Positions 9,672 through 26,932 of a stretch of 64,000 nucleotides of DNA are shown here, piece by piece (the first letter of the stretch is position 1; every line of letters begins with the position of its first letter). Location: NCBI GenBank assembly GCA_030619715.1, contig JAUXAW010000001.1, forward strand, positions 3,195 through 67,194, written 5' to 3'. A model generated the notes under the pieces. It did not search any database. It was not told the DNA's origin and saw nothing but the letters and a program-made list of their open reading frames with translations. A program made the translations under genes and the position numbers. The stretch is from a candidate division WWE3 bacterium. GTDB taxonomy: Bacteria; Patescibacteriota; WWE3; JAUXAW01.

Positions 9672-9717
9672 CAGTAAAGACAGTAATTCAGTAAAGACAG
9701 TAACCCAATAAGAACCT
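9672..9717. repeat. Tandem CAGTAAAGACAGTAA x2 plus AAGAACCT element upstream of ftsQ.
   Basis: cagtaaagacagtaattcagtaaagacagtaacccaataagaacct. A related element lies at 6029-6058. Confidence 0.6.
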
Positions 9718-9893
9718 TTCGCTTCGCCAAGTCTGACTTGGCTTCGCTCAAGAACCTTGCATTTGAGCATAGTCTAACGACTATTAGCTCAAAAGTAGGC
9801 CTTCGGCTTATTTAACTCCGGTACTTGACTTCTGTCCTGTATTATGTTAAAATTAAGAAGTAAAATGTGGTCGCAGAGCTTAATCTGCCAAAT

Positions 9894-9922
9894 TTGACAA
9901 ACGGAACAAAAACTGTTATAAT
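9894..9922 (+). promoter_or_regulatory. Perfect consensus sigma70 promoter TTGACA-17-TATAAT.
   Basis: TTGACA at 9894-9899, exactly 17 nt spacer, TATAAT at 9917-9922, then TTAAGG. This is the same cassette as at 26836 and 26904. Confidence 0.6.
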
Positions 9923-9928
9923 TAAGGT

Positions 9929-10021
9929 ATAAGCTCAAAAAGAAGCTTAAAAAAAGGCAATCAGCACTTGGTCTCGATATTCTTGTTATATCAAGGTCAA
10001 CCGCGGGTTGCCTTTATTTTT
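9929..10021 (+). ncRNA. Candidate short transcript or attenuator: promoter-proximal hairpins ending in an intrinsic terminator.
   Basis: Predicted TSS ~9929. Hairpin CAACC-gcg-GGTTG (9998-10010) followed by CCTTTATTTTT. An upstream imperfect hairpin sits around 9966-9994. Confidence 0.25.
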
Positions 10022-10057
10022 AGGCAATAAAACCAAATTCAAAGCGAGGAGGCAAAA

Positions 10058-10153
10058 ATGGCAAAGTACAAAACACCGCCGAGGTCCAAAAAGCGGCCGA
10101 CGGAGAACAGGGCGCTCGGTAGCATTCGCCGTCGGCAGCAACGACGCTCCTGA
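10058..10153 (+). CDS. Candidate 31-aa highly basic peptide (MAKYKTPPRSKKRPTENRALGSIRRRQQRRS).
   Basis: GAGGAGG RBS 5 nt upstream of the ATG. A second RBS+ATG mini-ORF (10 aa) starts at 10197. Could be leader peptides. Confidence 0.25.
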   Translation: MAKYKTPPRSKKRPTENRALGSIRRRQQRRS

Positions 10154-10691
10154 CCCAACACTTGGCCAGGAGCCAACAAAAACTAAAGGAGGTCACAATG
10201 CACAAAATGTCCGAGTTTCACCAACCTTAGCCGAAAGGCGAGGAACCCTCCTGAAACAAAAAACATCCCTGAATAGGGGAGCGGGTTGCAAGTAGGGAGG
10301 GAAAATAAAGGGCCTGGGCAGCCCTTCGGAGGGAAAGTTCGTCGGACAACGATGTCCAACAACTTTCCCTCCAATCCACCTGCTCTCAACCAACCGTTGA
10401 GGTCGGATGGATTCAACAACAATTTAACAACGAGGTGACACACTTGTGTGTTACCGCAGTTGACAAAAGACCTGTGGGTTGTAAGACGCGGAAAGTTCGG
10501 AAAAACATCGATTTCCGAATTTCCCTTGTCTTATTCACCCTTCATAAAGTTCAAAAAAAGAAAGGGGGCAAAATAAGACCAAAATGTACCACCTGACTCC
10601 GGACACCTGAACCCGCAAGGGCAGGCAACAGGAGGAGTCAGGGCCCACGCCCCCGTCCTTCGGGACACGGGCACGGGCAAGAAGGAGAGAA
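10154..10691 (+). promoter_or_regulatory. Long GC-rich structured 5' leader upstream of the cold-shock-domain gene.
   Basis: Nested hairpin GGGAAAGTT...AACTTTCCC at 10337-10375. Hairpin CTGACTCC...GGAGTCAG around 10594-10644. Hairpin GGTGACACAC-tt-GTGTGTTACC around 10433-10456. CspA-type genes typically carry long regulatory leaders. Confidence 0.3.
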
Positions 10692-11300
10692 ATGGCTAGT
10701 AGAATTAAGTTTTTCAACGGTACTCGCGGCTTCGGCTTCATCAAGCGCGAGGGGGAGCGAGACATCTTCTTCCACATCTCCGATGTGGTGAGCGGTTACA
10801 AACCGCAAGAAGGTGACTCGGTCGAGTTCGAGGTTGGTCAGGGCAAGAAGGGGCCCGCCGCCAGGAACATCCGCCCCGCCTCAGCCAATTCCGGTGAGGC
10901 GACCATGAAGGTCGTGATGGAGGGCGACGCGGTAACGAGCTCTGGCTCGTGCACCATCATCTGCGGCCTCAAAGGGGAACCGCTGCCAGCACTCAGTGCC
11001 CCCATGCGGGGAACTGGTAAGGGTAGCTACGCCACCCTGCGAGTAGGGAAGCACATCCAGGTGAAGGGTTCCTGGTACAGAGGCGAACCCGCCCAGATTA
11101 CCGTGGAAGAGGTTACTCCTGTCAAGGACGGAGAGCCGATTCGCGAGCTACTCTGGAAGGGAATTGCCGAGGAACTACCGGAGGTCTATGCCTATCTGGA
11201 GAAGGCAGTGCGCGCTGCGGATGAAAAAGCCCAGTGCTACCACTGCCACCACCTGCACTTTCCGGTGGCAAACGCTGGGCAGCTCGGCGCCAGAGTGTAG
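10692..11300 (+). CDS. Cold-shock-domain protein with a ~135 aa C-terminal extension (Cys/His-rich tail).
   Basis: N-terminus KFFNGTRGFGFIKREGERDIFFHISDV...GDSVEFEV is a CspA-like CSD. C-terminus carries QCYHCHHLH. GC about 60%. Confidence 0.75.
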   Translation: MASRIKFFNGTRGFGFIKREGERDIFFHISDVVSGYKPQEGDSVEFEVGQGKKGPAARNIRPASANSGEATMKVVMEGDAVTSSGSCTIICGLKGEPLPALSAPMRGTGKGSYATLRVGKHIQVKGSWYRGEPAQITVEEVTPVKDGEPIRELLWKGIAEELPEVYAYLEKAVRAADEKAQCYHCHHLHFPVANAGQLGARV

Positions 11301-11312
11301 AACACGGGATCA

Positions 11313-11342
11313 GAGGCGCCAGTATCCGCCTCTCTTTGCAGG
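11313..11342 (+). terminator. Candidate terminator hairpin after the csd gene.
   Basis: GAGGCG-ccagtatc-CGCCTC followed by TCTTTG. Weak T-run. Confidence 0.3.
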
Positions 11343-11630
11343 CAAAAGTTCGTCAGCAGTTTACGAACTCCCCGACCTGCGAAGTATTACAAGGGGATGA
11401 AAAGCACCAAGCACGTCTGGTCTATCAGATGCCCGATGAATAGGGTTGGTAGAAGACGTGCTACAGAGGGAGTCTGAAAGGACTTTGCTTTCAGACCGAT
11501 GCGCGCCCATGTTGCGTGTCCAACACTGATACCAGAACTAGTATCAGACCGTTGCTCCTCTCTCCAAGCTCATTAGTCTAAAAGGGTTAGTGAGTTTAGG
11601 GAGGGGAAATAGAAAAATAACTCAGTCATA

Positions 11631-12746
11631 TCAATTCAGTAACTTAACGACTTCGTCTGCGATGTTGTCTGCCGCATCCAACCGCACTAACTTCTGCGCC
11701 TTCTTTCCCCCTTCCCGATATTTTTCCAAATTGGACAAAAGTATATCACTATGTAGTAGTATACTTTTGGCAGATAAATCTTTTTCCTCAAGAATAATCG
11801 CCGAACCGGTGTCGACGAGAAGCTGGGCGTTTTTGCGCTGTTCGTCGTGGGAAACCCAGGGAATAGGAATCAAAATCGCCGGCTTTCCCAATGCGGCCAA
11901 TTCGTAAACAATATTCGCTCCCGCCCGGCTGACAACCAAATCGGCGGCGGCAAAAACAGCACCGATTTCCTCCTCACCAAAAAAATCTTGCAACAAGTAA
12001 CACGATCGTAGCTCCGCGCTAAGAGCTGAGCGCTGAGCGCTAAGCGCTTCGTAATCATCGAAGACCGTTGACCTCCCACACTGATGAATAACGTTATATT
12101 TCTCCAACAACTGCGGCAACGCTCCTTTCACCGCTTCGTTAATCACATGCGAACCTTGTTTTCCTCCAGTAATGTAAATTGTTGATAGTTGATTGTTGAT
12201 TGCTAATTGTTTTTTTACTTCGAAAATTGCAGGCCTGAGAGGATTACCGGTTACGGCAATTTTATCCCTCGGGAAATACTTTAAGGACTCTTCCCAACTG
12301 ACAAAGATTTTCTTTGCGAACTTAGAAACAAGCCGGTTCGCCCATCCCCCTTCAACCGTCTGCTCGTGCGTCACCGAGGGAATTCCCAAAAACCAGCCGG
12401 CTATCACCACCGGAGGAGCAAGATAGCCTCCGAAGCTGACAATCAAATGGGGTCGGATTTTCAAAAGATAACAAAAGGCCTGCAGAAAGCCGAACGGCAA
12501 GCGAATCAATTTTAGTGGGTGAAAAGTCCTGTAAAGCTTACCGGCCTTAAGGTCATAAAAAGGAATCCCCCGCCCGGTCACCTCCTGATATTCGGCGCTG
12601 ACATTCTTATCTCCCCACATGGAGAACTTGTGACCGATCCAACAAAAATTGGAAATTGGAAATTGGAAATTGGAAATTAGAGAATCGATGACAGCCAAGG
12701 CGGGCGTATGGTGACCACCAATAAAAACAATCCTAACGTCTTTCAT
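11631..12746 (-). CDS. murG: UDP-GlcNAc:undecaprenyl-PP-MurNAc-pentapeptide GlcNAc transferase MurG.
   Basis: N-terminal IVFIGGHHTPALAV. GGKQGSHVINEAV. The GT28 C-terminal domain is present. Confidence 0.9.
   Translation of the reverse strand: MKDVRIVFIGGHHTPALAVIDSLISNFQFPISNFCWIGHKFSMWGDKNVSAEYQEVTGRGIPFYDLKAGKLYRTFHPLKLIRLPFGFLQAFCYLLKIRPHLIVSFGGYLAPPVVIAGWFLGIPSVTHEQTVEGGWANRLVSKFAKKIFVSWEESLKYFPRDKIAVTGNPLRPAIFEVKKQLAINNQLSTIYITGGKQGSHVINEAVKGALPQLLEKYNVIHQCGRSTVFDDYEALSAQRSALSAELRSCYLLQDFFGEEEIGAVFAAADLVVSRAGANIVYELAALGKPAILIPIPWVSHDEQRKNAQLLVDTGSAIILEEKDLSAKSILLHSDILLSNLEKYREGGKKAQKLVRLDAADNIADEVVKLLN
12651..12678. repeat. Heptanucleotide tandem repeat (GGAAATT)x4 inside murG, in frame.
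   Basis: ggaaattggaaattggaaattggaaatt. It encodes ISNFQFPISNF in an N-terminal MurG loop. Confidence 0.9.
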
Positions 12747-13870
12747 TTTGAACTCCTGACCGTATAACGGCTAACCGAAAGAAGCAGCCCCATGGCCATC
12801 ATCATAAAAATCATCGACGAGCCGCCGTAAGAAATTAAAGGCAGGGGAATTCCCGTCAGCGGCAGCAAAGCCGTCATCGCCGCCAGATTGACTAGAACTT
12901 GAATTGCCAACCACGAAGCAACACCAGTCGCAACCAATTTTCCCAAATCATCAGGTGCCTCCCGTGCCACGGCAAAACTTTTAAAAATCAAAAAAGCAAA
13001 CGCCGCCACCACCGCCACCGTCCCCACAAAACCCAACTCCTCCCCGACGACGGCAAAAATTGAATCGGTTGTCACCTCCGGAAGATACTCGTACTTCTGG
13101 CGAGACTGACCAAATCCCAAACCAAAGGCCCCACCAGAACCAATCGCCATCAAAATTTGCTGGATATGATACCCACCGGAAAGAGGATCGGCCGCCGCGG
13201 GATCAAGATAAGTTTGCAGGCGCTGCATTCGATAAGGCGAGTTAATAATAAACAAAATCCCCAAAATTCCCAAACCTAATCCGAGAGGCAACAGCTTGAG
13301 GATGCTAACACCGGAGACAAAATAAATACAGAGTCCAATTGCGGCAATAACCATTGCTGTCCCGTAGTCGGGCTGGAGGACAACCAGACCACAAAGAACT
13401 GCCAAGAGAAAAAGAAACGACGAAAACCTCTGCTTTTTCTTGGCAAACCAAGCCGAAAGATAAAGAATAAAACTAAACTTGGCCAATTCCGACGGCTGGA
13501 AGCCCATCCCCCCCGGAAGGTAAATCCATCTTCGAGCACCATAAACTTTGGGAATAAACGCCTCAAAAACTGCTGGTAAAAATCGGGCTATCACCGTCAG
13601 GAGCAAGAAAAAAAGACTTAAGGCAAAAATAGTAAAGCTAAGCTTTGAAAGACGCTGGTAGCCTAGCTTGTAGACGAAAAACGCCGCAAGCGTCCCCAAA
13701 AGAACCCAGAGCGATTGGAGGATTAAAAAATGGTATTTTCCTCCAAAAACCTCGTGGGCATAAACGACCGAGGCATCGTAGACCATAATGACACCGAAGA
13801 TGAGGAGCAAGATGACTCCGATCAAGAGTGAGATATCTGGGGAGTGGGAAGTCTGTTTGAGACGAGGCAT
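12743..13870 (-). CDS. ftsW: SEDS-family peptidoglycan polymerase FtsW/RodA.
   Basis: 10-TM SEDS protein. Position in the dcw cluster. Confidence 0.85.
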   Translation of the reverse strand: MPRLKQTSHSPDISLLIGVILLLIFGVIMVYDASVVYAHEVFGGKYHFLILQSLWVLLGTLAAFFVYKLGYQRLSKLSFTIFALSLFFLLLTVIARFLPAVFEAFIPKVYGARRWIYLPGGMGFQPSELAKFSFILYLSAWFAKKKQRFSSFLFLLAVLCGLVVLQPDYGTAMVIAAIGLCIYFVSGVSILKLLPLGLGLGILGILFIINSPYRMQRLQTYLDPAAADPLSGGYHIQQILMAIGSGGAFGLGFGQSRQKYEYLPEVTTDSIFAVVGEELGFVGTVAVVAAFAFLIFKSFAVAREAPDDLGKLVATGVASWLAIQVLVNLAAMTALLPLTGIPLPLISYGGSSMIFMMMAMGLLLSVSRYTVRSSK

Positions 13871-13975
13871 AGAAAATTTCTAATTTCTAATATCTAATTT
13901 CTAAAATTTTCGACATTGGGAATTGGACATTTGACATTTTATTAGGAATTAGTAATTAGGAATTAGACATTATAG
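13871..13975. repeat. Repeat-rich AT-rich intergenic spacer (TTTCTAA and GGAATTRG units).
   Basis: atttctaatttctaatatctaatttctaa ... gggaattggacatttgacatt ... aggaattagtaattaggaattag. Confidence 0.7.
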
Positions 13976-15070
13976 CTACAACAGTGCCACCAAAACACCG
14001 GCAAATGCTAAGACTGCACCAGCTAACCAAAGACGCATTGTGACCTTGGTCTCCGGCCAGCTGAGCATCTCAAAATGATGGTGAAGTGGCGCCATCTTAA
14101 AGACCCGACCCCGACCCATTTTGACCGAGGCAACTTGGATAAGCACCGAAAGAACCTCGGCCACAAAAACGCCGCCAACTATTAAAAGACTTAACTCCCG
14201 TCGCAGCATCATTGCTATTACGGCGAGAGTCATCCCCAAGGACAGCGAGCCGACATCGGCCATTTCAAAACGAGCCGGATGAATATTGAAGTAAAGAAAC
14301 GACAGCAAAGTTCCCACAACAGTGGCGCAAAAATAGCCAATCTGATTGTAGCCTAAAGCTAAACTAATAACCATATAGGCGGTAAAAGCCATCGCCAAAA
14401 GACCGCCGGCGAGCCCGTCCATCCCATCGGTTAAATTGACGGCGTTGGCCATTCCCGCCAACATCAAAACAACGAGGGGAATATAAAAAATTCCGATGTC
14501 AAAAGTTCCCAAAAACGGCAGCCAAAGTTCGTGCCAATCCAGTTTGAAGTACATCCACCAGGCGGCGACCAAACCGATGGCTACCTGAATGAGAAACTTT
14601 TCCCAGGGCTTAAAACCGGAGGTTGGGTAGCTACCCAGAGCCCGAAAAATTTCCTTAAAAGCGTTCCAGGGCAGAAGTAAAATGTTATAGATGTTCCAGG
14701 TGAAGCCGGACAAGGTAACAATCGGTGTAACTCCCCCCCGCACCGTGTCCGAAAGTTTGGCGTGACCAAAAATGTTTAAAAGATCGTCGATGCCGCCAAA
14801 GATGCCTGCTATAGCCAAACAGAAAAGAGGTAGACAAGTTTGCGCTCGCGAGAGATTAAAGACAAGAGTGATGGCAATGGTGGTCAGTACCATCAACAGG
14901 CCGCCCATGATCGGGGTCCCCAACTTGACCCGCCGCGCCTCAATTTTCTCTTCAACCTCCTGCCTGATTCGTCGACGAACGTTACACTTGTACAAAAATT
15001 TGATCAACAGCGGCGCCCAGGCAAAACTCACTATTAACGATCCCAAAAGAAAAACCAACGCTTTAATCAT
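13976..15070 (-). CDS. mraY: Phospho-N-acetylmuramoyl-pentapeptide transferase MraY.
   Basis: NAVNLTDGMDGLAGG motif. Polytopic membrane protein. The track start at 15094 overlaps murF; the internal Met at 15070 is more likely. Confidence 0.9.
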   Translation of the reverse strand: MIKALVFLLGSLIVSFAWAPLLIKFLYKCNVRRRIRQEVEEKIEARRVKLGTPIMGGLLMVLTTIAITLVFNLSRAQTCLPLFCLAIAGIFGGIDDLLNIFGHAKLSDTVRGGVTPIVTLSGFTWNIYNILLLPWNAFKEIFRALGSYPTSGFKPWEKFLIQVAIGLVAAWWMYFKLDWHELWLPFLGTFDIGIFYIPLVVLMLAGMANAVNLTDGMDGLAGGLLAMAFTAYMVISLALGYNQIGYFCATVVGTLLSFLYFNIHPARFEMADVGSLSLGMTLAVIAMMLRRELSLLIVGGVFVAEVLSVLIQVASVKMGRGRVFKMAPLHHHFEMLSWPETKVTMRLWLAGAVLAFAGVLVALL

Positions 15071-16302
15071 TGTTTCCAACGCACGTCCTGACAAACAAGA
15101 AGTTCCGCGACACGTGATGGATCCTTCAAAAGCTTTTCGACGATTTTCTCCATCCTCATTCCCCGCGAGCCTTTGACTAGGATTATATCACCTTTCTTAG
15201 GCTTAATTAAATCCACAATCGATTTCGATGCTTCCTCGGAATTTTCAAAACGATGATACTGCGCAGTATTAGAGTGGAAAGATTCACCGACCGTGATTAG
15301 AACATCAGCGTCCGACTCGGTAACCATCTGCCCGACCAAACGGTGGCCATTTTCTTCAAAATCACCCAACTCGAGCATATCCCCGAGGACCGCGATTCTT
15401 CTCTTCGCCGAAAAATTTTTTAGAACTTTGAGGGCGGCGGCGGCCGATTTTGGTGAGGAATTATAGCTGTCGTCCAAAATTTTTGCGCCGTTGATACCAC
15501 CCAAGAGATTTAGACGACCTCTGAGAGGCTTAAGCTTTTTCAAACCACGATTAATCTCGACCGTAGACAAACCGCAAACCTTCCCCACGGCCGCCGCCGC
15601 TAGTGCATTATAAATTACATGCTCTCCCAAAAGGGGAATTTGGGCCTTAATTATCTCTGGCCGGACATCAGCCCTTGGGTTTTTCCCGTACCAGACAATC
15701 GGACTTTTACATTTTTTCTCCAACGAGCGTACATTTTCATCGTCCCAATTTAAAACCGCCGCCCCCGACGGTGGAAGTGCTTCCAGTAGTTCTCCCTTGG
15801 CTTTGATAATATTTTCCAAAGTACCGAGCTTCTCCATGTGCGTTGGATTGATAAAAGTAACAACGCCGATTCGTGGCTTAATGATCTTGCAGGTTTCTCT
15901 AATCTCTCCCAATCGGTCCATCCCCACCTCAACAACTAATTTCTGGTGAGATTTTTTGAGGTTGTTCACAATTTCAATTGAGAGTCCCAAAGCGGTATTC
16001 AGAGTCTCGGCGGATTTTAAAACCTTAAATTTCTGTGCTAAAACGGTGGTAATGGCTTCTTTGGTTGAAGTTTTCGCCGTCGAACCGGTAATGGCAATTA
16101 CTTCGGGGTTGACTTTCTTTAAACGCTTTTTAGCAGTTTCGTAAAGCTCCTCTTCTTCCAAAACTCCCTTCGCTCCCTTCTTCAACGCCTCGTCAATAAA
16201 CTTGTGCCCGTCGTACTTCTCCCCCTTGACGGCGACAAAATATTCCCCCTTTTTAATCAACCTCGAATCCTGACAAACTTTCATAACATCTAAAGATGTC
16301 AC
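15067..16302 (-). CDS. murF: UDP-MurNAc-tripeptide--D-Ala-D-Ala ligase MurF (Mur ligase).
   Basis: ITGSTAKTSTKE P-loop. N-terminus DSRLIKKGEYFVAVKGEKYDGHKF. Four bp overlap with murA. Confidence 0.8.
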   Translation of the reverse strand: MTSLDVMKVCQDSRLIKKGEYFVAVKGEKYDGHKFIDEALKKGAKGVLEEEELYETAKKRLKKVNPEVIAITGSTAKTSTKEAITTVLAQKFKVLKSAETLNTALGLSIEIVNNLKKSHQKLVVEVGMDRLGEIRETCKIIKPRIGVVTFINPTHMEKLGTLENIIKAKGELLEALPPSGAAVLNWDDENVRSLEKKCKSPIVWYGKNPRADVRPEIIKAQIPLLGEHVIYNALAAAAVGKVCGLSTVEINRGLKKLKPLRGRLNLLGGINGAKILDDSYNSSPKSAAAALKVLKNFSAKRRIAVLGDMLELGDFEENGHRLVGQMVTESDADVLITVGESFHSNTAQYHRFENSEEASKSIVDLIKPKKGDIILVKGSRGMRMEKIVEKLLKDPSRVAELLVCQDVRWKQ

Positions 16303-17645
16303 TCCAATTCTGCCCGCTCGATTTTGGCACCGAGGTTACGGAGCTTTTCGTCGAAATTTTCGTAGCCGCGGTCAATGTGTTCGACGCCAGAGGTTTCGCT
16401 TTGACCCTCGGCGGCGAGGGCGGCTAAAATCAAGGTGGCACCAGCACGAAGGTCTGGAATCGCCAACCGCGAACCGAAAAGAGATGTTGGTCCGTGAACC
16501 CTCGCGAGAACTTTAGGTTCTCTATCTCCCTCCAACCACTCAAAGCCGTATCTTCCGGGATCAAAAGCTATTCCTGCTTCGGAAGGAGTCAAGACCTCAA
16601 TCTTCGCTCCCGCCTTTAACAGCTCGTCGACGAAAGAAAAACGATTCTCAAAAATAGTTTCGTGAGCCAAGCTTACTCCATTGGCTTGGGCTAAAAGAAT
16701 GCAAAAGGGCTGAATCCAATCCGTCATAAACCCGGGGTGGGGGACAGATTCCACGTCAACCGGCTCCAGCGCCGTGCCCTCTTCTAACCAAACCCGAAGG
16801 GTCTGTTTCTGAATGTCAAAACCAACGCCCATTTTTTCCAGCTTGGCCAAAAAAGCGGTTAGGTCCAGGGGCCGAACGTCGGTCAGCGTTACATCTCCCC
16901 TGGTTGCCGCGGCGGCAACGGCAAAAGTAACCGCCTCATTGCGATCAGGCAAAATCCGGTGACGCGCCCCCGCAAGCTCCCGCACCCCCTCAACCACAAT
17001 CCTTCTTGATTCACTTTCATCCCTCTTAATCCTCGCTCCCATTTTGACCAAAAGCACAATCAAATCATCAACCTCCGGCTCCTCGGCGGCATTCGTGATC
17101 ACCGTTTCGCCCTCGGCTAAAACCGACGCCAAAATTGCATTCTCCGTTCCCATTACCGTGTTTTTATCAAAATTAATCTCTGCCCCCTTCAGTCGCGGCA
17201 CCGAAATTTTGTAAACCCCACCCTTATGAGAGACTACTGCTCCCAGTTTTTCCAAAACCATCAGATGACGGTCGATGGGGCGCAAACCGATGCGGCAACC
17301 GCCGGGCTCGGGAATCGTTACCTCACCAAAACGAGCCAAAAGAGGGCCAATAGTTATTACCGAGCTTCGTGATTTTACCCCCAAACTGTGGGGAACTTCC
17401 GAGGAGAAAACTTCGTCGGCCCGCAAACCAAGAGTGTGCTCATCGAGGAACTCCGTCTTAACTCCCAAATTCTCAACGATTTCAACAATCACTCCCACAT
17501 CATCAATCCGCGGAATATTTTCTAAAACTACTTCATCAGAGGTCAAAAGCGAAGCCGCCACCATCTTGATCGCAGCGTTCTTGGCACCTGATATTTGAAC
17601 TTGACCCTTGAGGGGAATACCACCCTCAATTAAAAATTTCTGCAT
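16299..17645 (-). CDS. murA: UDP-N-acetylglucosamine 1-carboxyvinyltransferase MurA.
   Basis: QISGAKNAAIKM. Catalytic Cys in the GGCRIGLRPIDRH loop. Confidence 0.9.
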   Translation of the reverse strand: MQKFLIEGGIPLKGQVQISGAKNAAIKMVAASLLTSDEVVLENIPRIDDVGVIVEIVENLGVKTEFLDEHTLGLRADEVFSSEVPHSLGVKSRSSVITIGPLLARFGEVTIPEPGGCRIGLRPIDRHLMVLEKLGAVVSHKGGVYKISVPRLKGAEINFDKNTVMGTENAILASVLAEGETVITNAAEEPEVDDLIVLLVKMGARIKRDESESRRIVVEGVRELAGARHRILPDRNEAVTFAVAAAATRGDVTLTDVRPLDLTAFLAKLEKMGVGFDIQKQTLRVWLEEGTALEPVDVESVPHPGFMTDWIQPFCILLAQANGVSLAHETIFENRFSFVDELLKAGAKIEVLTPSEAGIAFDPGRYGFEWLEGDREPKVLARVHGPTSLFGSRLAIPDLRAGATLILAALAAEGQSETSGVEHIDRGYENFDEKLRNLGAKIERAELE

Positions 17646-19714: not shown

Positions 19715-19718
19715 ACTG

Positions 19719-20594
19719 TCACTTCTTCTCTAACGCTCTCAGTTTTGCCGATCTTGTCCTCGGATTTTTTTCAATTTCCTCGTCTGACGGTACTACTGGC
19801 TTCCTTGTTAATTCTCCTCCCAAATCCTTTTTAATCATATTCTTCATAAAATCCTTGACAATCCTATCCTCCAGCGAGTGAAAACTAATAACGACTAACC
19901 GACCGTCTGCTTCCAGCAGTCCAAACGCTTGGGGCAGTGAGGACTGCAAGTTATTTAGCTCATCGTTAACCGCAATCCTAAGCGCTTGGAACACTTTAGT
20001 CGCCGGGTGTGTTTTCCGGGGCTCTCTGACAACCTGCGTGACTATATCCGCCAACTCCGCCGAGGTCCTAATCGGTTTGTCCCAACGCGAACGGATAATC
20101 GCCCCGGCAACAGCGCGTGCTCGAGACTCCTCTCCGTATTTTTCAAAGAGCTTAACAAGTTCTTTTTCACTCAAACCGTTAACCAAGTCTGCGGCAGTAA
20201 CTTTTAGATCGGGATCGGCGCGCATATCCAACGGTTCATTTTTTTGAAAACTAAACCCCCGTCCCGAATGCTCTAGTTGATAACTTGAAAGCCCAAGGTC
20301 GTACAAAATCCCAGTAACCGGATAGAAATCGTTCTCTTTGGCAATCTTGTCGATATTTTTAAAGTTCTGAGCTCTTAGCACCCAGCCCTTAGCACCTAGC
20401 TTTTCTAGCTTCTCCCGAGCGGCATCTATCGCATCAGGATCGACGTCCAGCCCGAGAAGGTTTCCACCACGCTTAACGATTTCGACCGCATGGCCGCCAC
20501 CGCCGACTGTCGCGTCGATATATTTTTTATTAGAACGTACGTTTAAATACGTTAGTGTCTCTTTTAAAAGTGCTGGTTCATGAAACTCCGCCAT
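19719..20594 (-). CDS. rsmH: 16S rRNA m4C1402 methyltransferase RsmH (MraW).
   Basis: GGGGHA SAM-binding motif. Classic position after mraZ. Confidence 0.9.
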   Translation of the reverse strand: MAEFHEPALLKETLTYLNVRSNKKYIDATVGGGGHAVEIVKRGGNLLGLDVDPDAIDAAREKLEKLGAKGWVLRAQNFKNIDKIAKENDFYPVTGILYDLGLSSYQLEHSGRGFSFQKNEPLDMRADPDLKVTAADLVNGLSEKELVKLFEKYGEESRARAVAGAIIRSRWDKPIRTSAELADIVTQVVREPRKTHPATKVFQALRIAVNDELNNLQSSLPQAFGLLEADGRLVVISFHSLEDRIVKDFMKNMIKKDLGGELTRKPVVPSDEEIEKNPRTRSAKLRALEKK

Positions 20595-21025
20595 CAGACC
20601 TCAAGCTTAGCCAACCTTTTGCCAGTCGCCCCCGAATGCTTGGCAATATAAGTTTTCCGCTTCGCCCATTCTTCGCTAGCCCAAATTTCAACCCACCGGC
20701 CTAGTCCCAAAAAACAAACTTCTTTCTTAATCTTGGCGTACTCTTTAAGGTTCTTGGGCAGAACGAATCGCCCGGCCTCATCCAACTCAACCTCAACTGC
20801 GCCCCCCAGCAAAAATCGGCTTGTGTCCCGCACCTCCTCGGCTACAAAAGGCCCTGCCGCCGCGTCGGCAATTAAAATCTCCCACTGTTTGGGAGAAACA
20901 ACAACTAAACAACCCTCGTAGCCCTGGGTAACGACAACTTTATTACCAATTTCTTCGCGAAATTTTTTTGGTAGCGAAACACGGTTCTTGGCCTCGACTC
21001 TGTATTTGTATTCTCCAATAAGCAT
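20594..21025 (-). CDS. mraZ: Transcriptional regulator MraZ.
   Basis: Duplicated MraZ/SpoVT-AbrB fold. N-terminus MLIGEYKYRVEAKNRVSLPKKFRE. Confidence 0.9.
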   Translation of the reverse strand: MLIGEYKYRVEAKNRVSLPKKFREEIGNKVVVTQGYEGCLVVVSPKQWEILIADAAAGPFVAEEVRDTSRFLLGGAVEVELDEAGRFVLPKNLKEYAKIKKEVCFLGLGRWVEIWASEEWAKRKTYIAKHSGATGKRLAKLEV

Positions 21026-21059
21026 AACATTATCTTACCACCAATTCCCACTAAATACC

Positions 21060-21088
21060 ACTTTACATATATAAAAAGTTCTTGTCAA
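21060..21088 (-). promoter_or_regulatory. Candidate mraZ/dcw promoter (TTGACA-17-TAAAGT on the minus strand).
   Basis: The -35 at 21088-21083 and -10 at 21065-21060, ~35 nt upstream of the mraZ ATG. TGGGA/GTGG repeats lie between the -10 and the start, a possible MraZ box. Confidence 0.4.
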
Positions 21089-21116
21089 GTATCAGTTTCT
21101 CCTTTAGGTACAACTA

Positions 21117-21151
21117 AGAGCCAAGCTCTGACGGAAAAAGAGCTTGGCTCT
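21117..21151. promoter_or_regulatory. Perfect 13 bp inverted repeat AGAGCCAAGCTCT-N9-AGAGCTTGGCTCT between glyQS and the mraZ promoter.
   Basis: Seen directly. No T-run on either strand, so this is a terminator-like or operator hairpin. Confidence 0.5.
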
Positions 21152-21221
21152 GGGCCTGGCTTGACACCAGCTGTTTATTTTGCTACTTTATAGGTTGAAG
21201 GGGAGAAGGCTGCCTAAGGTG

Positions 21222-22589
21222 TCACTCCAGACGCTTACGGAAGAGCTCAACTAATTCAGAGGTTTTGAAGCGCTCCTGTTCTGTTGTGTCTCGGTCGCGG
21301 ACGGTGACAGTGTCATCTTCCAAAGTTTGAAAGTCGATAGTTACACACCACGGCGTTCCGATTTCGTCCTGAGAATAGTAGCGCTTACCGATGTTGCCGC
21401 GGTCATCCCAAGCGACGTGAAACTCCGTCTTCAAATCTTCAAAAACTTCCCGCGCCTTTTTGACCAACTCCGGCTTATTTGCCAAAAGAGGAAATACCGC
21501 TACTTTATACGGTGCCAATCGTGGATCCAGCCTTAAGACAACACGATCTCCATCTTCAGTGTAACTATCAAGCAACGCCACCAACGCCGTCCTGGTCACT
21601 CCGAAAGTTGGCTCAACTACGTGCGGGAAAAATTCCTCACCCGTTTCCTGGTCACGGTAGCGCAAATCAACTCCACTAAACTTGGTATGCTGCCTCAAAT
21701 CATAATCCGTGCGGTAAGCCAAACCGTAAAGCTCCTTAAAACCACCGAAGGGAAAATCATACTCGATATCCTCGGTTCTTTTTGAATAGTGAGAAAGTTC
21801 CTCTTCGGTGTGTCTTCGCCAACGCAATTTATCTTTAGAAATTCCCAACGATGTCAACCAACCTGTCATCTCCTCCTTCCAATATTCAAAATATTTCTCC
21901 CAATTCTTTTCGCGGACAAAATACTCGAGCTCCATCATCTCAAACTCAAAAGTCCTGAAAATAAAATTACCCAAGGTCACCTCGTTACGGAAAGCTTTTC
22001 CAACTTGAGCCAAACCAAAAGGAATCTTGGGCGAAAAAGAATCAACCACATTTTGAAAAGTCAGGAACATATTCTGAGCTGTTTCGCCACGGAGATAAAC
22101 TTTGTCTTTGCCTTCCTCCAAACTACCTAAAGAGGTTTCAAAAAGAAGATTGAATTTACGGACCGAGGTCAAATCAACGCTACCACAGGAAGGGCACTTC
22201 AATTTGTTTTCCAAAACTATTTTGTCAACCTCCCCAAGCGGCTTCCCTTCAACCTTGATATTCAACTCATCTTCAATCAGATGGTCAGCTCGGATTCGCT
22301 TCTTACAGCTTTTGCAGTCAATTAAAGGGTCATTAAAGCTTTCCGTATGCCCCGAAGCCTGCCAAACTTTAGGATTAGAAATAATTCCTCCGTCAGTACC
22401 ATAAATGTCTTCACGCTCGTGAACAAAAGTCTTCCACCACAAATCTTTAATGTTTCTTAAAAGTTCGGCCCCCAAAGGGCCGTAATCATAAGCATTCGCC
22501 AGCCCCCCGTAAATTTCGGAGCTGGGATAAACAAAACCGCGCCTTTTGCAAAGACTGACAATTTTTTCTAGCAAGTTTTGCTCACTCAT
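21222..22589 (-). CDS. glyQS: Glycyl-tRNA synthetase (alpha2 dimeric type).
   Basis: N-terminus [26 protein letters not shown]. Class II aaRS motifs. 455 aa. Confidence 0.9.
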
Positions 22590-23125
22590 AATTTCTCTTG
22601 AAACTGCGGGGACTTCAATTTCTTCTCAATGATTTCCTCAATATAACCTTTTATATCTCTGCGGTCAACCTTGTCTGACCAGAAACCAAGCAACCTCAAC
22701 AACTCGATCTCGAAATTCCGAGTAGTGGCACTTAGCTCAGAGCGTTTAGCACTTAGCTCGCCAAGAGTTCCGACTAAGAGGTTAAAAACCTGACGGTTGA
22801 CTTGTCTGTCCGGTGTCAGTTGGTCAACCAGTTCAACCAAATAAAACGCTGCCGCGGTTTTCCTAAGGTCTTTTTTAAGTTTTGAAAATGAATTGACCAC
22901 CTGCGCCTCGGTGACAATATCAAGATTTCGTCCCTCGGCCAGAAACAAAACGCAGTGATTAAAGAGCTCAACATTTCCCCCTTTCCTCGAAGTAATCTTC
23001 CGAACCCCCTTAGCAATCGTTTTAATTTTGCCGTAATGCTTCGTATAGATTGTCAGAATCCGGTCCGCCTCACCATAGTTCGTTCGCTTTAAGATTACCC
23101 CTTCAGTTTTATAACTGGACATCAA
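22586..23125 (-). CDS. recO: DNA repair protein RecO (short form).
   Basis: N-terminal OB-fold region [27 protein letters not shown]...AKGVRK. Confidence 0.65.
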
Positions 23126-24953
23126 TTTCGCGGTCGGACTTCAACTCAAACCCCTCAACCTCTTTACCATTAACCTTAATGCTATACATATGCCCGTCGG
23201 TCCCGGGTTGCTTTTGAACCAGCATTTGCAAGGCCTGGCCTTTCTGGACCTTAAAAGGCAACTCGTAGGTCACCGAAACGGAGTTGGAGTTCTCTGGATA
23301 GCAATAGGTGTAAGTTGTGAAAACCGTCTTGCCTAATTCTTCAGAAGAGGTCACCGCCGTCCAAGAGCTGCTGTCAAGAAGCTTGGAGCCTTGAGGAACA
23401 TAAATCCGCATCCAATCATAATAAGTCCCGTTGAGCCAACCGTCGTGGGGTTCGGGATTGTTTAAATTGATTGTCACCGTTTTTACCACCGTTCCATCTT
23501 TTGCCACCTTGATGTCCTGAGTTACCGTTTCCTGGATATAAAGATTGGCCTTGGCTCCGGCAAAGTTACAATCGTTGATGTGAAGATAATCACCGTCAAA
23601 ATCCCTGCTTCGCCCAGCAAAATTATACTTCTCCGCCAACTTTTGCGCCTCTGGCGCATGAAGATACAAAAGAACATGCTTCTCTCCCACCGCCTGCAGT
23701 GCCGTCTCGAAAAGTGGCTTCCAACGATCGCGGGAAGCGTGGAAGGCCTTGTCCATCATGGCGTCCATTAACTCTCCCAAAAGATCCTTGCGACCGACAA
23801 TATACCGCCCCAAAAGATTGACGTAAAGTTCTAACTGATAAACAATATTCTCCGAAGAGAAGGGCTCCTCATAGCCAGAAAGCTCGACTGGGCCCAAAAC
23901 CCCCAAAATATCTTTGACAAAATAGGTGTCAATACCAATAATTCCGTCAATCCGTGGAAAATTGGAAATTTTTCCTAAAAACCACTCAAACTTTTGACAA
24001 CTCTCATAGAAGTCCGGCGAGAGGTTAGAATCGCGAATAAAAGATTCTTCGACTTTAAGATATTGGGCTAAGACCGGCGTGGGAGGAGTTCTTTCGACAA
24101 TTTTTTCGTCCAACTTATACATATCATCGGAGGTCACCGAGATGATTTTCCCGCCCTCGACCGTTATCAGCGCGTAGGCGGTCAAAAAGCCCCCCGTCGG
24201 CCGCAGCTCTTTGTCATTTTGAAAAAGAACTAAATAGGTCTTTGGAGCCAAGTCACCCAAAACCCCCGGCAGAACGGCCAAAAGCTCTTTGATATCCGGC
24301 ATACTCTCCTCTACCGTATTCATCGTTTGTTTGGCCTCAATCAAAAGCGAACGAATTGGTTGACCTCTGAACGATTGAGGATAACGTTTGGGATCAACCG
24401 TCTCCAGCTCTTGGCGAATCGCCGCAAATTCTGTGGCAACTTCATCCAGTCGAGGGGCAATCTCGGGCATCACTTTGACCAGACCCTCAATCTTCTTTTC
24501 CGCATCAAGAAAGGCCTCGGTCTCCTCGGTCTTAAACCCCAAAACATCAGCGAACGGCTCAATCGCCTCGATCAGAACATTCCCCGCGGCAACACCGTGA
24601 TGAGCAGCTCGCAGAATATGCTCAATATCTTTGTAGTAGTTACCAAAGAAGGGGACGCTTTTCGTCCAAGAGAGGGGTTTAACATCTTCCTGAATATAAC
24701 CGATAGAGTCGTCTAGACCCGCAAGATCCCGCTCAATCTTGGTTAAATCTTGCAACAAAACCCCATCTTTCAAAAGCCGTGCTTGCCACCGAACTTTTTT
24801 AACATCGGCATAAACTTTCATCCCCGGCCGAATAATGAATAGAAAACAGAAAACAATGAACAATAAACAGAAAACAGAAAACAGGGCGACTGATCGTTTG
24901 TGTTTATAAAAGAAATTTGAGATTTGAGATTTGAGATTTGAGATTTTTTTCAC
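23109..24953 (-). CDS. DUF4012 domain membrane-anchored protein (paralog A).
   Basis: Signature LVLFQNDKELRPTGGFLTAYALITV. N-terminal TM segment. GTG start immediately followed by an A7 tract and the heptamer repeat. Confidence 0.8.
   Translation of the reverse strand: MKKISNLKSQISNFFYKHKRSVALFSVFCLLFIVFCFLFIIRPGMKVYADVKKVRWQARLLKDGVLLQDLTKIERDLAGLDDSIGYIQEDVKPLSWTKSVPFFGNYYKDIEHILRAAHHGVAAGNVLIEAIEPFADVLGFKTEETEAFLDAEKKIEGLVKVMPEIAPRLDEVATEFAAIRQELETVDPKRYPQSFRGQPIRSLLIEAKQTMNTVEESMPDIKELLAVLPGVLGDLAPKTYLVLFQNDKELRPTGGFLTAYALITVEGGKIISVTSDDMYKLDEKIVERTPPTPVLAQYLKVEESFIRDSNLSPDFYESCQKFEWFLGKISNFPRIDGIIGIDTYFVKDILGVLGPVELSGYEEPFSSENIVYQLELYVNLLGRYIVGRKDLLGELMDAMMDKAFHASRDRWKPLFETALQAVGEKHVLLYLHAPEAQKLAEKYNFAGRSRDFDGDYLHINDCNFAGAKANLYIQETVTQDIKVAKDGTVVKTVTINLNNPEPHDGWLNGTYYDWMRIYVPQGSKLLDSSSWTAVTSSEELGKTVFTTYTYCYPENSNSVSVTYELPFKVQKGQALQMLVQKQPGTDGHMYSIKVNGKEVEGFELKSDREIDVQL
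24916..24950. repeat. Heptanucleotide tandem repeat (TTTGAGA)x4 followed by a T7/A7 homopolymer at the extreme 5' end of the DUF4012 gene.
   Basis: tttgagatttgagatttgagatttgagattttttt. It encodes MKKISNLKSQISN. Confidence 0.9.
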
Positions 24954-25594
24954 GCTGCTCCTCTCGCCTGCAAAACTGCCAACGGTGTTTTGAGGATAAT
25001 GTAAAAATCGTAGAGGATTGAACGGCGGTCGGCATAGGCCGCATCCATTTTAGCCCTCTCGACAAAACTAACCTCCGAGCGACCTCCAACCTGCCAAGGA
25101 CCAGTAATTCCCGGCTTAACTTTTAAGAGCCGCTCAACATACGGACGGCTCTCGGGAAAAACGCGCTGCTGGTCCCGTAACTCAAAAGGAAAATAGGCAC
25201 GCGGCCCGACCAAACTCATCTCTCCCCTCAAAACGTTGATAAACTGCGGAAACTCATCAACACTCACCCTCCGCATAAAATTCCCTCCTCCAATAATGCG
25301 GGGGTCGTTTTCCAATTTGTAGCTATTTCTCTTGTACTCCTCATAAAGTTCGGAATGTTGTAGCAGATAGGCGTGGGCGTTGGGAATCATTGAGCGAAAT
25401 TTGTACATCCGAAATTTTTTACTATCTTTGCCAAGTCTTTCGGGGATATCCGCAAACACCGGACCCGGAGAAATAAGTTTGATATAAACGGCAGTTAGGA
25501 GCATCAGGGGACTAAAGACTACCAAACCAACGATCGCACCCACGATGTCAATCAGGCGTTTGGTCTTGTCATAAAAGTCTGGTGTGTTCTTCAT
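24950..25594 (-). CDS. Polyprenyl-phosphate sugar-1-phosphate transferase (initiating phosphoglycosyltransferase, PglC/WbaP C-terminal-domain type).
   Basis: KFRSM. DEFPQFINVLRGEMSLVGPRA. PGITGPWQV. The start at 25594 has a GGAGGG RBS; the track start is 25696. Confidence 0.85.
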   Translation of the reverse strand: MKNTPDFYDKTKRLIDIVGAIVGLVVFSPLMLLTAVYIKLISPGPVFADIPERLGKDSKKFRMYKFRSMIPNAHAYLLQHSELYEEYKRNSYKLENDPRIIGGGNFMRRVSVDEFPQFINVLRGEMSLVGPRAYFPFELRDQQRVFPESRPYVERLLKVKPGITGPWQVGGRSEVSFVERAKMDAAYADRRSILYDFYIILKTPLAVLQARGAA

Positions 25595-26705
25595 AAAGGC
25601 CCTCCACAAAACCCTCAAGCTCTCTCTGGAAGCGCTTCTTACTAAATCTTGCCGCCTGCGCGTAGCAGTCTTCACTATGATACTGTGCCGTACCAAAGTG
25701 TTCGAGAGCCTTGGTTAGGGCCTCAACCGTTTGTGGATAGAAAAACTCCCCCGTTTTGCCTCCAATCACCGTTTCCAAAGCCCCACCAGCTTTAAAAGCG
25801 ATGACCGGTTTTCCCACCGCCTGTGCTTCCAGAGGCGTGATTCCGAAGTCCTCTTTCTGCGGAAAAATCAAGGCACGGCAGCCTTTATAGTAACTGACCA
25901 CCTCTTCGTCTGTCAACCGATCAAAGAGCTCGACTGTGGGTCCCGCTAATTTCTTCAGCCGTTCAAAATCTGGACCTTCGCCGATGATTTTGAGAGGAAG
26001 TTTGAGCCGGTTGCCGGCTTCGATCGCAATATCGATTTTTTTCCAGGCAGTCAGGCGAGAAACAATTAAATGGTAATCTGAATTAGCGACCGAGGGGTCC
26101 GCGAGCGGAACGTTAGGGTTCGGAGCCGATCGGAACCGATCCAAATCTACGAACGGGTAAATGATGTGCGAATCCCGACCGTAGTATTTTTTGATTCGCG
26201 CCTGCGGCGTCTTGGAGTTGGCGATAAAGTGGTCAACTCGTTGAGCAGCAGCGTAATCCCAAAGGCGGAAATAGGATAAAAAGGGATTTAAGAGGGATTT
26301 AAAGGGATAGGGAAAATTTTCAAAATAAGTTTGGGGTTCCCAAAACATTCGCGGTGGGGTATTCATATAGCAGATATGAAGCGTCTCCGGCCGTGTAATC
26401 ACCCCGTGGGCAAATCTCGTTGAAGATGACAAAACAACATCGTAACCTGTTAGATCAAAACTCTCAAAAGCAAGTGGATAGAGTGGGAAATAATGGCGGT
26501 AAAGTTTTTCCTTAAACGGCAGCTTCTGCATAAACGAAGTTTTGAGATTTGAGATTTGAGATTTCCACTGGGCGGAGGCCATGGATGTAAAAACGTCAGC
26601 TTTGGGGAACGTCTCGATCATTGCCATAAACAACCTCTCCGCTCCCCCATGTTGAATCAAATCATCATGAACCAAAGCGATTTTTATTTCAGTCATCGTC
26701 CCCAT
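25569..26705 (-). CDS. GT4-family glycosyltransferase.
   Basis: EDFGITPLEAQAVGKPVIA (E-x7-E region). Contains the in-frame heptamer repeat at 26538-26566 (KSQISNLK). Confidence 0.8.
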   Translation of the reverse strand: MGTMTEIKIALVHDDLIQHGGAERLFMAMIETFPKADVFTSMASAQWKSQISNLKTSFMQKLPFKEKLYRHYFPLYPLAFESFDLTGYDVVLSSSTRFAHGVITRPETLHICYMNTPPRMFWEPQTYFENFPYPFKSLLNPFLSYFRLWDYAAAQRVDHFIANSKTPQARIKKYYGRDSHIIYPFVDLDRFRSAPNPNVPLADPSVANSDYHLIVSRLTAWKKIDIAIEAGNRLKLPLKIIGEGPDFERLKKLAGPTVELFDRLTDEEVVSYYKGCRALIFPQKEDFGITPLEAQAVGKPVIAFKAGGALETVIGGKTGEFFYPQTVEALTKALEHFGTAQYHSEDCYAQAARFSKKRFQRELEGFVEGLYEEHTRLL

Positions 26706-26733
26706 TTTATCACACCCTATCTGTTTTCTCCCG

Positions 26734-26814
26734 TGATGTAGTGGCAGGCTTGTCTGTTACCTCCCCTCACTAAAGTGATGTAATTCCCGTACGGCCGTAC
26801 GCAATTAACATCAC
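26734..26814. promoter_or_regulatory. Operator-like element: three GTGATGT(A/T)A boxes (two direct, one inverted) around a perfect 14 bp palindrome CGTACGGCCGTACG.
   Basis: gtgatgtag (26734). gtgatgtaatt-CCCGTACGGCCGTACG-caattaacatcac (26775-26814). Confidence 0.45.
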
Positions 26815-26835
26815 TTCCCACCAACCCCCTCATAT

Positions 26836-26864
26836 TTGACAACCATCTTGTAATATGGTATAAT
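26836..26864 (+). promoter_or_regulatory. Perfect consensus promoter TTGACA-17-TATAAT (copy 2).
   Basis: TTGACA at 26836-26841, 17 nt spacer, TATAAT at 26859-26864, then TAAAGG. Confidence 0.6.
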
Positions 26865-26903
26865 TAAAGGGTGGGATGCAGTAGCGAACTTTAGTTCGCG
26901 CAT

Positions 26904-26932
26904 TTGACAAACAGAGCATTCTATGCTATAAT
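26904..26932 (+). promoter_or_regulatory. Perfect consensus promoter TTGACA-17-TATAAT (copy 3, tandem to copy 2).
   Basis: TTGACA at 26904-26909, 17 nt spacer, TATAAT at 26927-26932, then TAAGAAGG. Confidence 0.6.

Follow-up and report, generated by a model that had tools for sequence, protein, structure and literature searches.

A tandem promoter module that probably heads two moron-like units inserted into conserved operons of a WWE3 bacterium

Why should near-ideal promoters lie in the midst of operons that run the opposite way? The question is raised by a 64-kb stretch of the genome of a WWE3 bacterium (hereafter the window, meaning the whole stretch analysed), in which nearly all genes are on the minus strand and three perfect sigma-70-type promoters stand on the plus strand. 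The organism is a tiny-genome member of the Patescibacteria (or candidate phyla radiation, CPR) from groundwater; its closest MurG matches, ~53% identical, come from metagenome-assembled genomes labelled 'Patescibacteria group', WWE3 and Saccharibacteria. Patescibacteria have tiny genomes, few regulators and nearly no experimental genetics, and the ways in which they acquire and express genes are largely uncharted. A preliminary description of the window regarded the three promoters as identical copies of one cassette, each in front of a GC-rich plus-strand insert interrupting minus-strand operons, and suggested a mobile or recruited promoter module. Here, I propose that the three perfect sites are parts of two diverged copies of a ~110-nt module, each heading an autonomous, moron-like unit inserted on the opposite strand into a conserved operon; the probability of this reading may be put at roughly 0.6.

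The sites lie at 9894-9922 (TTGACAAACGGAACAAAAACTGTTATAAT), 26836-26864 (TTGACAACCATCTTGTAATATGGTATAAT) and 26904-26932 (TTGACAAACAGAGCATTCTATGCTATAAT), all on the plus strand, and the positions, the perfect hexamers and the 17-nt spacer given in the preliminary description are all correct. Each of them has 12 of 12 hexamer positions (TTGACA-17-TATAAT), as expected of a sigma-70/sigma-A promoter, together with the TGn of an extended -10 element and a TAA immediately downstream; at the first, transcription is predicted to start at ~9927-9930. All promoter sites of the two loci are intergenic, being located between minus-strand host genes and upstream of plus-strand open reading frames (ORFs) with ribosome-binding sites. 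The supposed rarity of such promoters is borne out as well. The 17-base motif TTGACA-N14-TGN-TATAAT-TAA occurs three times in the window versus 0.00 times in 100 dinucleotide shuffles, and five matches versus 0.20 expected are found if one mismatch is allowed across the two hexamers; in a wider scoring scan, the promoters of the host operons in the window reach at most 10-11 of the 12 hexamer positions. Among 31 related Patescibacteria murG loci (529 kb) the 17-base motif is absent, and just two perfect hexamer pairs are present, both in L006, the nearest relative in GTDB. A further plus-strand site at 23914-23942 (TTGACA-17-AATAAT) was rejected as probably due to chance; it lacks TGn and is antisense inside a minus-strand DUF4012-type gene (23109-24953).

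The copies are not identical, as had been claimed. The 17-nt spacers of the three perfect sites pairwise share just 8-9 of 17 bases, and the wider scan found a fourth site at 9825-9853 (+; TTGACT-17-TAAAAT with TGn, 10/12 hexamer positions), therefore the real unit at both loci is a tandem pair, P1 and P2. In the first insert (insert 1) P1 is the site at 9825 and P2 that at 9894, 69 nt apart; in the second (insert 2) P1 and P2 are the sites at 26836 and 26904, 68 nt apart. The tandem arrangement had been recognised at insert 2, its counterpart at insert 1 having been overlooked. Spacers agree at 9/17 positions between the two P2 and at 11/17 between the two P1. Taken as a whole, the module comprises P1, ~40 nt usually with a hairpin, and P2 with its AT-rich TAA discriminator; five copies are at hand, namely those of inserts 1 and 2 plus L092, L154 and L169 from other assemblies, and the 68-69 nt register is kept in all five.

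The similarity extends beyond the promoters proper. The modules of inserts 1 and 2 align in register with one gap at 66.7% identity over 105 nt, and the identity between the window module and L092 is 71.9% over 114 nt. As a background, at least 120 loci were collected from public metagenomes, these being any tandem promoter pair that fits the same constraints; they are mostly unrelated, with AT-rich contexts, short leaders and, in 10 cases, tRNA genes. The two window modules are mutually second or third best match when compared with 120 control modules (z ~3.3), and the score of their spacers and inter-promoter sequence is 19 versus 2.4 +/- 5.1 and 0.5 +/- 5.4 for the controls, the only modules that outscore the pair being L092 and L154, which are plainly relatives. 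A profile built from L092 and L154 gives 58.2 bits (E 1e-15) to insert 2, the best control reaching 22.6 bits; with insert 2 added to the training set, insert 1 obtains 36.2 bits (E 5e-9; best control 23.8), and L169 scores 53.6 bits (E 4.6e-16) with a family profile trained without it. On direct reading of the sequences, the stretch just after P1, which is TAAAGAGTAAGATGTAGTTGC in L092, is identical at 16 of 21 positions in insert 1. On these scores, insert 2, L092, L154 and L169 appear to be close relatives, and insert 1 a more diverged member of the same family with moderate scores.

Between P1 and P2 a hairpin is found at the same aligned place in insert 1 (9873-9888, +; GCAGA-GCTTAA-TCTGC, -7.5 kcal/mol, z -1.0), in insert 2 (26884-26899, +; GCGAAC-TTTA-GTTCGC, -15.8 kcal/mol, z -4.0), in L092 and in L169, the stems differing from copy to copy (stems are given as read; MAFFT places that of L092 one column off the others).

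What the two modules head is extra DNA. Insert 1 occupies about 9752-11630 (+), between ftsQ (8924-9658/9751, -) and murG (11631-12746, -) of a classical division and cell wall (dcw) cluster; insert 2 occupies about 26718-27542 (+), between two genes for GT4 glycosyltransferases, one of which is 25569-26696; both are convergent with the minus-strand host operons. In L006, ftsQ follows murG after 8 nt, and FtsW-MurG-FtsQ-FtsA are contiguous in at least 17 related loci, where the end of murG and the start of ftsA are ~850-900 nt apart versus 2751 nt in the window. Relatives retrieved with the downstream glycosyltransferase share the synteny glycosyltransferase-glycosyltransferase-Bac_transf-DUF4012-RecO-GlyRS-MraZ, and the site between the two glycosyltransferase genes is empty in L170 (51-nt gap), L171 and L172 (4-nt overlap), being occupied, among the relatives compared, only in the closest one, L169 (glycosyltransferase 85% identical). 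Comparison with these genomes thus shows that both units are insertions relative to them, in agreement with the interruption of minus-strand operons noticed at first. The assembly at insert 1 is sound, since both of its junctions with murG and ftsQ recur in the independent Logan contig L001 (100% over 2000 nt). Apart from the module, inserts 1 and 2 share nothing.

The most telling case is L169, in which the same module stands before another cargo. Its unit, 929 nt long, is on the strand opposite to the host genes, as in the window, and its module consists of a degenerate P1 (TTGATA-17-TACAAT), a hairpin, and a perfect P2 followed by TAA; the hairpin, GCGAAG-TTCA-CTTCGC, differs from that of insert 2 by a compensatory change of a C-G to a G-C pair. 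In blastn comparisons with insert 2 the left flank is 86% identical, the module 80.6% over 67 nt and the right flank 79%, and no similarity is found between module and right flank, that is, across the cargo; the homology ends at about the -10/+1 of P2. Instead of the 87-aa ORF of the window, L169 encodes a 156-aa ORF with its own terminator (GC 0.54, no Pfam match). One type of module is therefore found before three non-homologous cargoes, these being a cold-shock domain (CSD) fusion in insert 1, the 87-aa ORF in insert 2 and the 156-aa ORF in L169, and the comparison shows the module to be a reusable socket: at the glycosyltransferase site it was kept between sister genomes and everything past the P2 start was replaced. 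The suggestion of a recruited or mobile promoter module is thereby upheld in its core, though no mechanism of mobility was found.

Module and cargo are separable in the other direction too, because relatives of the cargoes occur without it: in L002 (298 nt of upstream sequence available), in L157, where the cargo relative follows an ORF without family match that looks, by eye, like a DnaQ/DEDDh exonuclease, in L164, which has a stand-alone domain in a 72-kb viral contig, and in L166/L167, where it has a single TTGACT-17-TAGTAT promoter and lies beside a tRNA.

Upstream of P1 in insert 2, and 20 nt before it, there is an imperfect palindrome of 44 nt (26773-26816; centre ACGGCCGT, 82% complementary). 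Its counterpart in L169 has the same ACGGCCGT centre and arms that differ in sequence yet remain complementary, the lengths being 44-46 nt across both genomes.

The two units have the same general plan. In insert 1, some 20 nt after the predicted P2 start, an A-run, a long hairpin and a U-run form a terminator-shaped element (9945-10025, +; -31.4 kcal/mol, z -5.4) that also folds on the minus strand (-28.3 kcal/mol, z -4.4) and thus looks like an intrinsic terminator able to work in both directions; it could attenuate the CSD unit or bring a ~95-nt small RNA to its end, and could also halt read-through from the host operon. It is followed by a possible, very basic 31-aa ORF (MAKYKTPPRSKKRPTENRALGSIRRRQQRRS; 10058-10153, +), putatively coding, with a GAGGAGG ribosome-binding site, and by the remainder of a structured leader (10154-10691, +). 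The leader as a whole (9929-10691, 763 nt) folds with -283.5 kcal/mol (z -9.5), and sliding 200-nt windows along it give z from -3.5 to -5.6 versus ~0 in host genes. At its end, directly before the ribosome-binding site of the CSD gene, a three-tier hairpin (10643-10678; GCCC..GCCC..GUCC-UUCG-GGAC..GGGC..GGGC) is found that is also present at about 46-81 of L003, within a segment (1-96) conserved with 10596-10691 of the window, and at 94-128 of L004, where the apical stem is compensated (GAGC-UCA-GCUC); it is a candidate element of translational control.

The cargo gene of insert 1 (10692-11300, +) encodes 202 aa, with an N-terminal CSD (Pfam E 1.2e-15, residues 4-61) and a C-terminal domain of ~130 aa ending in CYHCxHxH. 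Full-length homologues of the fusion are rare, just five in 5.8 billion proteins. Its C-terminal domain (window 10896-11297, residues 69-202) belongs to an uncharacterised family of ~100 representative clusters (P0007-P0107) with the motif GGG.TNTG.ATIVCG ... W.G..ELP ... KA.CYHC.H.H, mostly lacking a CSD and usually placed behind a different N-terminus of ~60 aa; among its members are L164 9944-10360, in the viral contig, and L166 254-793, an autonomous promoter-leader-ORF-terminator unit beside the tRNA on a CPR contig of the Hainich groundwater. A first AlphaFold model, from five sequences, was discarded, its C-terminal domain having a predicted local distance difference test score (pLDDT) below 50; an AlphaFold2 (AF2) model of the fusion from a 30-sequence alignment reached a pLDDT of 81, and showed a borderline fold match to the AFV1 ORF157 nuclease (PDB 3ii2 / 3ild) at 13-15% sequence identity, so that a possible ORF157-like nuclease fold is a lead only. 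Outside the window, the homologues of the fusion always adjoin a gene for a Cys-rich protein of ~200-234 aa without family (CDVCE ... YLTFCFYCDSTMCCNEVEYPDNPDWD; L002 916-1515, L003 725-1339 and L004 894-1598, the last on the minus strand), a partner that is absent in the window, not even a pseudogene being present downstream of the CSD gene. The 3' region of insert 1 (11301-11630, +), which abuts the stop codon of murG, consists of long hairpins (-127.8 kcal/mol, z -6.8), and no plus-strand terminator with a U-tract was called in it.

In insert 2, a structured leader of 224 nt (26939-27162, +; z -4.9), containing a non-conserved 38-aa ORF (26957-27073) and homologous to the L092 leader over its first ~60 nt, precedes the gene of an 87-aa Cys-containing protein (27163-27426, +). 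This protein has no family assignment and no match in Pfam, PHROG or PADLOC, hence the 'Zn-ribbon' first ascribed to it finds no profile support; a single homologue is known (P0006, 77% identity). Pfam, PHROG and PADLOC searches of all cargo and neighbouring proteins returned the CSD as the sole match. The unit is closed by a predicted intrinsic terminator (27464-27532, +), a long hairpin followed by UUCUUUUGUUUG (-49.9 kcal/mol, z -5.1). Substitutions in cargo 2 fall mainly on the third codon position (35 versus 17 and 13), and third-position changes dominate in cargo 1 as well; because of this excess, both cargo ORFs are regarded as real genes under purifying selection.

As for composition, the inserts had been described as GC-rich. 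This is true of the cargo ORFs (0.58-0.60 versus 0.43-0.47 in the flanking genes and 0.46 in the genome), less so of the payloads as a whole (0.51-0.53), and the promoter modules are AT-rich (0.34-0.36). Also ftsZ and ftsA (window 6095-8880) have a GC of 0.54-0.56, with ~0.64 at third codon positions, versus 0.44-0.48 in the neighbouring dcw genes, which suggests an expression-linked codon bias in this genome.

How would such units work, and how would their cargo be exchanged? The housekeeping sigma-70/sigma-A holoenzyme would bind the near-ideal promoters without any activator and give strong expression, and the transcript would begin with a long leader rich in hairpins, continue through a small cargo gene that has a strong ribosome-binding site, and finish in a structured 3' region. 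The leaders may act as attenuators or stabilisers; in insert 1 the CSD protein may regulate its own synthesis at the terminator hairpin (9945-10025), a proposal based on the general role of CSD proteins as antiterminators. Cargo exchange and spread would most likely occur by ordinary recombination, with the module and the host flank as homology, rather than by self-transposition. By being inserted, the units would cut the host operons, and ftsQAZ and the glycosyltransferase gene 25569-26696 would then depend on extended -10 promoters of their own, while the terminator-like hairpins inside the inserts should stop read-through from the host.

Candidates for the host promoters can be recognised. 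That of ftsQAZ (9666-9695, -; TTTACT-18-TAGAAT) is 7 nt before the likely ATG of ftsQ at 9658, from which the FtsQ homologues align, and that of the glycosyltransferase (26712-26704, -; TGaTAAAAT) is 7 nt before the ATG at 26696 (MTEIKIALV) and conserved in L169; a -10 element just 7 nt before the ATG suggests that both mRNAs are leaderless. The left edge of insert 1 contains some repeats. Close to the start of ftsQ and upstream of it (9710-9759), the copies of a 9-nt direct repeat, AAGAACCTT, enclose a small palindrome, GCCAAGTC-T-GACTTGGC, and next to it there is a 17-nt tandem repeat, TTACTGTCTTTACTGAA x2 in the minus-strand reading (9668-9705), that overlaps the ftsQ promoter; they look like scars of small insertions or slippage. 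The sequence TAT(T/A)AGCTCAAAA, which flanks the module of insert 1, was considered as an element end and judged to be due to chance because insert 2 has no equivalent; other bracketing matches are short and at chance level.

Some points speak against the two units being inserted, module-headed cassettes. Their promoters, start sites and terminators are predictions, and the distribution of the module in this genome is known for the 64-kb window only. With the profile from L092 and L154 insert 1 is a marginal member, its 23.3 bits being hardly different from the 22.6 of the best control. The hairpin between the promoters ranges from strong in insert 2 through moderate in L092 to weak in insert 1, L154 having none, and its role is uncertain on account of this variation. 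Neither an integrase nor a transposase could be recognised for the inserts, and they have no terminal inverted repeats or target duplications. Finally, GC excess alone is no proof of foreign origin, since ftsA and ftsZ are also GC-rich, and part of the excess in the cargoes may reflect high expression.

Among the alternatives, the first is that the RNA, or the act of transcription itself, is the function, the ORFs being secondary; the inserts would then mainly be genes for large structured non-coding RNAs, or else strong convergent promoters and terminators by which the dcw and glycosyltransferase operons of the host are insulated or repressed through transcriptional interference or antisense RNA. 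The strong folding of the 763-nt leader (z -9.5), the structure that runs through both inserts where host genes have z ~0, and the terminator-shaped hairpin of insert 1, which lies just ~20 nt past the P2 start and would yield a ~95-nt RNA, are all in line with it; so are the convergent orientation of both units, the minus-strand terminator-like sites that they contain, and the perfect promoter followed by a ~500-nt structured leader in L006. Yet no Rfam family is recognised, there being no match at gathering score in the whole window and no credible one at E up to 10 in both inserts and in the L006 leader; the leaders of insert 1, insert 2, L169 and L006 are mutually non-homologous; purifying selection acts on both ORFs, and each is preceded by a strong ribosome-binding site; and in L092 the module is oriented like the host genes. 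Such a role is, in my opinion, unlikely.

Second, the units might be self-mobile or phage-derived, that is, true morons, prophage remnants or members of a hairpin-dependent cassette system, the module and its upstream palindrome being the element end. Their architecture (extra DNA of deviant GC with predicted promoters of its own and, in insert 2, a predicted terminator) is like that of morons (PMC3594210), a stand-alone homologue of the C-terminal domain of the CSD fusion is encoded in the 72-kb viral contig L164, and the homologue of the 87-aa protein adjoins, in a GC-rich contig, an ORF resembling a DnaQ/DEDDh 3'-5' exonuclease (by eye; no Pfam, PHROG or PADLOC match). Likewise, the palindrome at the upstream edge of the module has co-varying arms in the window and L169, and most relatives of cargo and module come from very short contigs, which is what DNA that is variable or repeated would be expected to give. 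Against a viral or mobile origin, the inserts are placed in dcw and glycosyltransferase operons and not in a prophage, the recombinases, inverted repeats and target duplications looked for were not found, the tandem pattern with TAA has 0 matches in the 2.9 million viral contigs of IMG/VR, where the CSD-fusion profile retrieved generic CSD matches plus the single stand-alone ORF of L164, neither cargo region has a blastn match in 50,697 phage records, and beyond the CSD there is no match in PHROG or PADLOC. This origin is accordingly rather doubtful, and the same low degree of belief applies to a related proposal in which module and co-varying palindrome are the conserved 5' end of a class of promoter-bearing cassettes of Patescibacteria, inserted and exchanged at fixed sites of core operons by a dedicated mechanism. 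Such a mechanism might possibly be hairpin-dependent or a site-specific recombination, and could be likened to an integron turned inside out, in which the promoter goes with the socket and the cargo behind it is replaced.

The last alternative, convergence of unrelated promoters each driven to the sigma-70 optimum by a need for high expression of genes such as that of a cold-shock protein, the residual similarity being chance and constraint, can draw on the abundance of tandem near-consensus promoters in metagenomes (at least 120 loci, driving tRNAs and ordinary ORFs), on P2 spacers just 9/17 identical and on the bare margin of insert 1 over the controls with the L092 and L154 profile, but it is highly improbable in view of the 16/21 identity of insert 1 and L092 in the non-consensus stretch after P1, of the 68-69 nt register common to all five copies, and of leave-one-out scores by which insert 2 and L169 greatly exceed the 120 controls and by which insert 1, when three copies are used for training, also exceeds them clearly.

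Other units of comparable design were observed. A third plus-strand unit among minus-strand genes is located at 2109-2943 of the window. Its promoter, near 2188, is degenerate (TTGACA-17-TAGTTT with TGn); it contains a 68-aa lipoprotein-like ORF (2337-2543) and an 87-aa ORF (2619-2882), both with strong ribosome-binding sites and a GC of 0.54-0.58, and it ends in a terminator-like hairpin (~2893-2935); having no nhmmer match, it is outside the module family. At 1-5800 of the window, a minus-strand cluster of nucleotide metabolism and modification genes may be an island; among its members are a thymidine kinase gene (1027-1632, GC 0.58), one for a DUF1599 'nucleotide modification associated' protein (2944-3522), a C5-cytosine methylase-like gene (3755-4810) and a fusion of a helix-turn-helix (HTH) domain with a deoxynucleoside kinase (4817-5734). 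In L006, one perfect promoter (TTGACA-17-TATAAT) opens a unit at 1758-2700, directly behind the preceding gene's stop codon, with a ~500-nt structured leader (z -4.3), a GC-rich 113-aa ORF and a terminator; a second one (19094-18086, -) serves the genes of two small membrane proteins, whose neighbours are encoded on the other strand. The L006 units match those of the window in architecture, yet they are not homologous to the module family.

If the two inserts of the window are, as preferred here, autonomous units headed by a shared module, the socket would allow acquired genes to be put in place and strongly expressed by simple means and with no regulator; it would also be a natural example of promoter reuse, and the module a candidate strong and portable promoter for the engineering of Patescibacteria. 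Insert 1 splits the murG-ftsQ link of the cell-division cluster, so that the rewiring of an essential operon would be directly testable. The cargo proteins are new families, one being the fusion of a CSD to a domain whose fold may be that of an ORF157-like nuclease, the other an 87-aa Cys-rich protein.

It remains to compare the units with known systems. Tandem P1-P2 strong promoters of the sigma-70 type are typical of stable-RNA operons and phage early regions. The present module resembles them in the distance of tens of nt between promoters, in the near-consensus hexamers and in the extended -10, and there are examples among the control loci. It differs from them in that no rRNA, tRNA or known RNA is found downstream, and in having a constant distance of 68-69 nt and a conserved sequence between the promoters. 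Promoters of the rrn/tRNA class were rejected on the grounds that Rfam gives no match and that the window contains no tRNA or tmRNA (ARAGORN). Likewise rejected was an outward promoter borne by an insertion sequence (IS) or a miniature inverted-repeat transposable element (MITE), there being no repeats that bracket the inserts and no transposase domain. An integron gene cassette, a promoterless ORF with an attC hairpin on its 3' side in an array beside intI, was rejected too, since here the cassettes have promoters of their own, the palindrome is on their 5' side, without an attC core by eye, and no tyrosine recombinase was matched among the flanking ORFs examined.

Cold-shock genes of the cspA type have a strong promoter and a long regulatory 5' untranslated region, and CSD proteins are transcription antiterminators. 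Insert 1 is reminiscent of them, since its CSD gene is placed behind a very strong predicted promoter and a long structured leader with a terminator-shaped hairpin and a conserved hairpin before the ribosome-binding site. The leader of E. coli cspA is ~160 nt long, as generally known, whereas that of insert 1 is about 770 nt, and the protein is a rare fusion with an uncharacterised domain of ~130 aa. As to that domain, the comparison with the AFV1 ORF157 nuclease fold (PMC4187194) is one of borderline similarity at 13-15% identity, concerning folds and not catalytic residues.

Closer parallels are provided by putative mobile promoters (PMPs), which are defined by at least 80% identity over at least 50 nt (PMC3488235). 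The likeness consists in a ready-made promoter recruited to new or acquired genes, in that the module is shared and the cargoes are dissimilar. The PMP identity threshold is reached by insert 2 versus L169 only (80.6% over 67 nt), and neither within the window (66.7% over 105 nt) nor in the comparison with L092 (71.9% over 114 nt). The distance to the start codon is also greater than that set for PMPs, since 769 nt separate the end of the P2 -10 element from the CSD start in insert 1, and 230 nt from that of the 87-aa ORF in insert 2, with only putative mini-ORFs nearer to P2 than these two genes. Moreover, unlike PMPs, the module is a fixed tandem near-consensus pair, it is associated with cassettes inserted on the opposite strand whose leaders are long and structured, and at one site in the chromosome the exchanged cargo begins precisely behind the second promoter.

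With phage morons (PMC3594210), the units have in common the extra DNA between genes that are adjacent in relatives, a deviant GC, and small genes of unassigned function. A promoter and a terminator of its own are also moron features: promoters are predicted in both units, a canonical terminator in insert 2, and in insert 1 hairpins without a U-tract. The GC of the cargo ORFs (0.58-0.60 versus 0.43-0.47 in their neighbours) is likewise that of a moron, though ftsA and ftsZ also reach 0.54-0.56. Unlike morons, the units are found in core dcw and glycosyltransferase clusters, syntenic with other Patescibacteria, and not in a phage or prophage context. Different morons are not known to share one promoter module. 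To sum up, the units are best read as moron-like cassettes in the chromosomes of Patescibacteria, with a tandem promoter socket in common, and as akin to both mobile promoters and phage morons.

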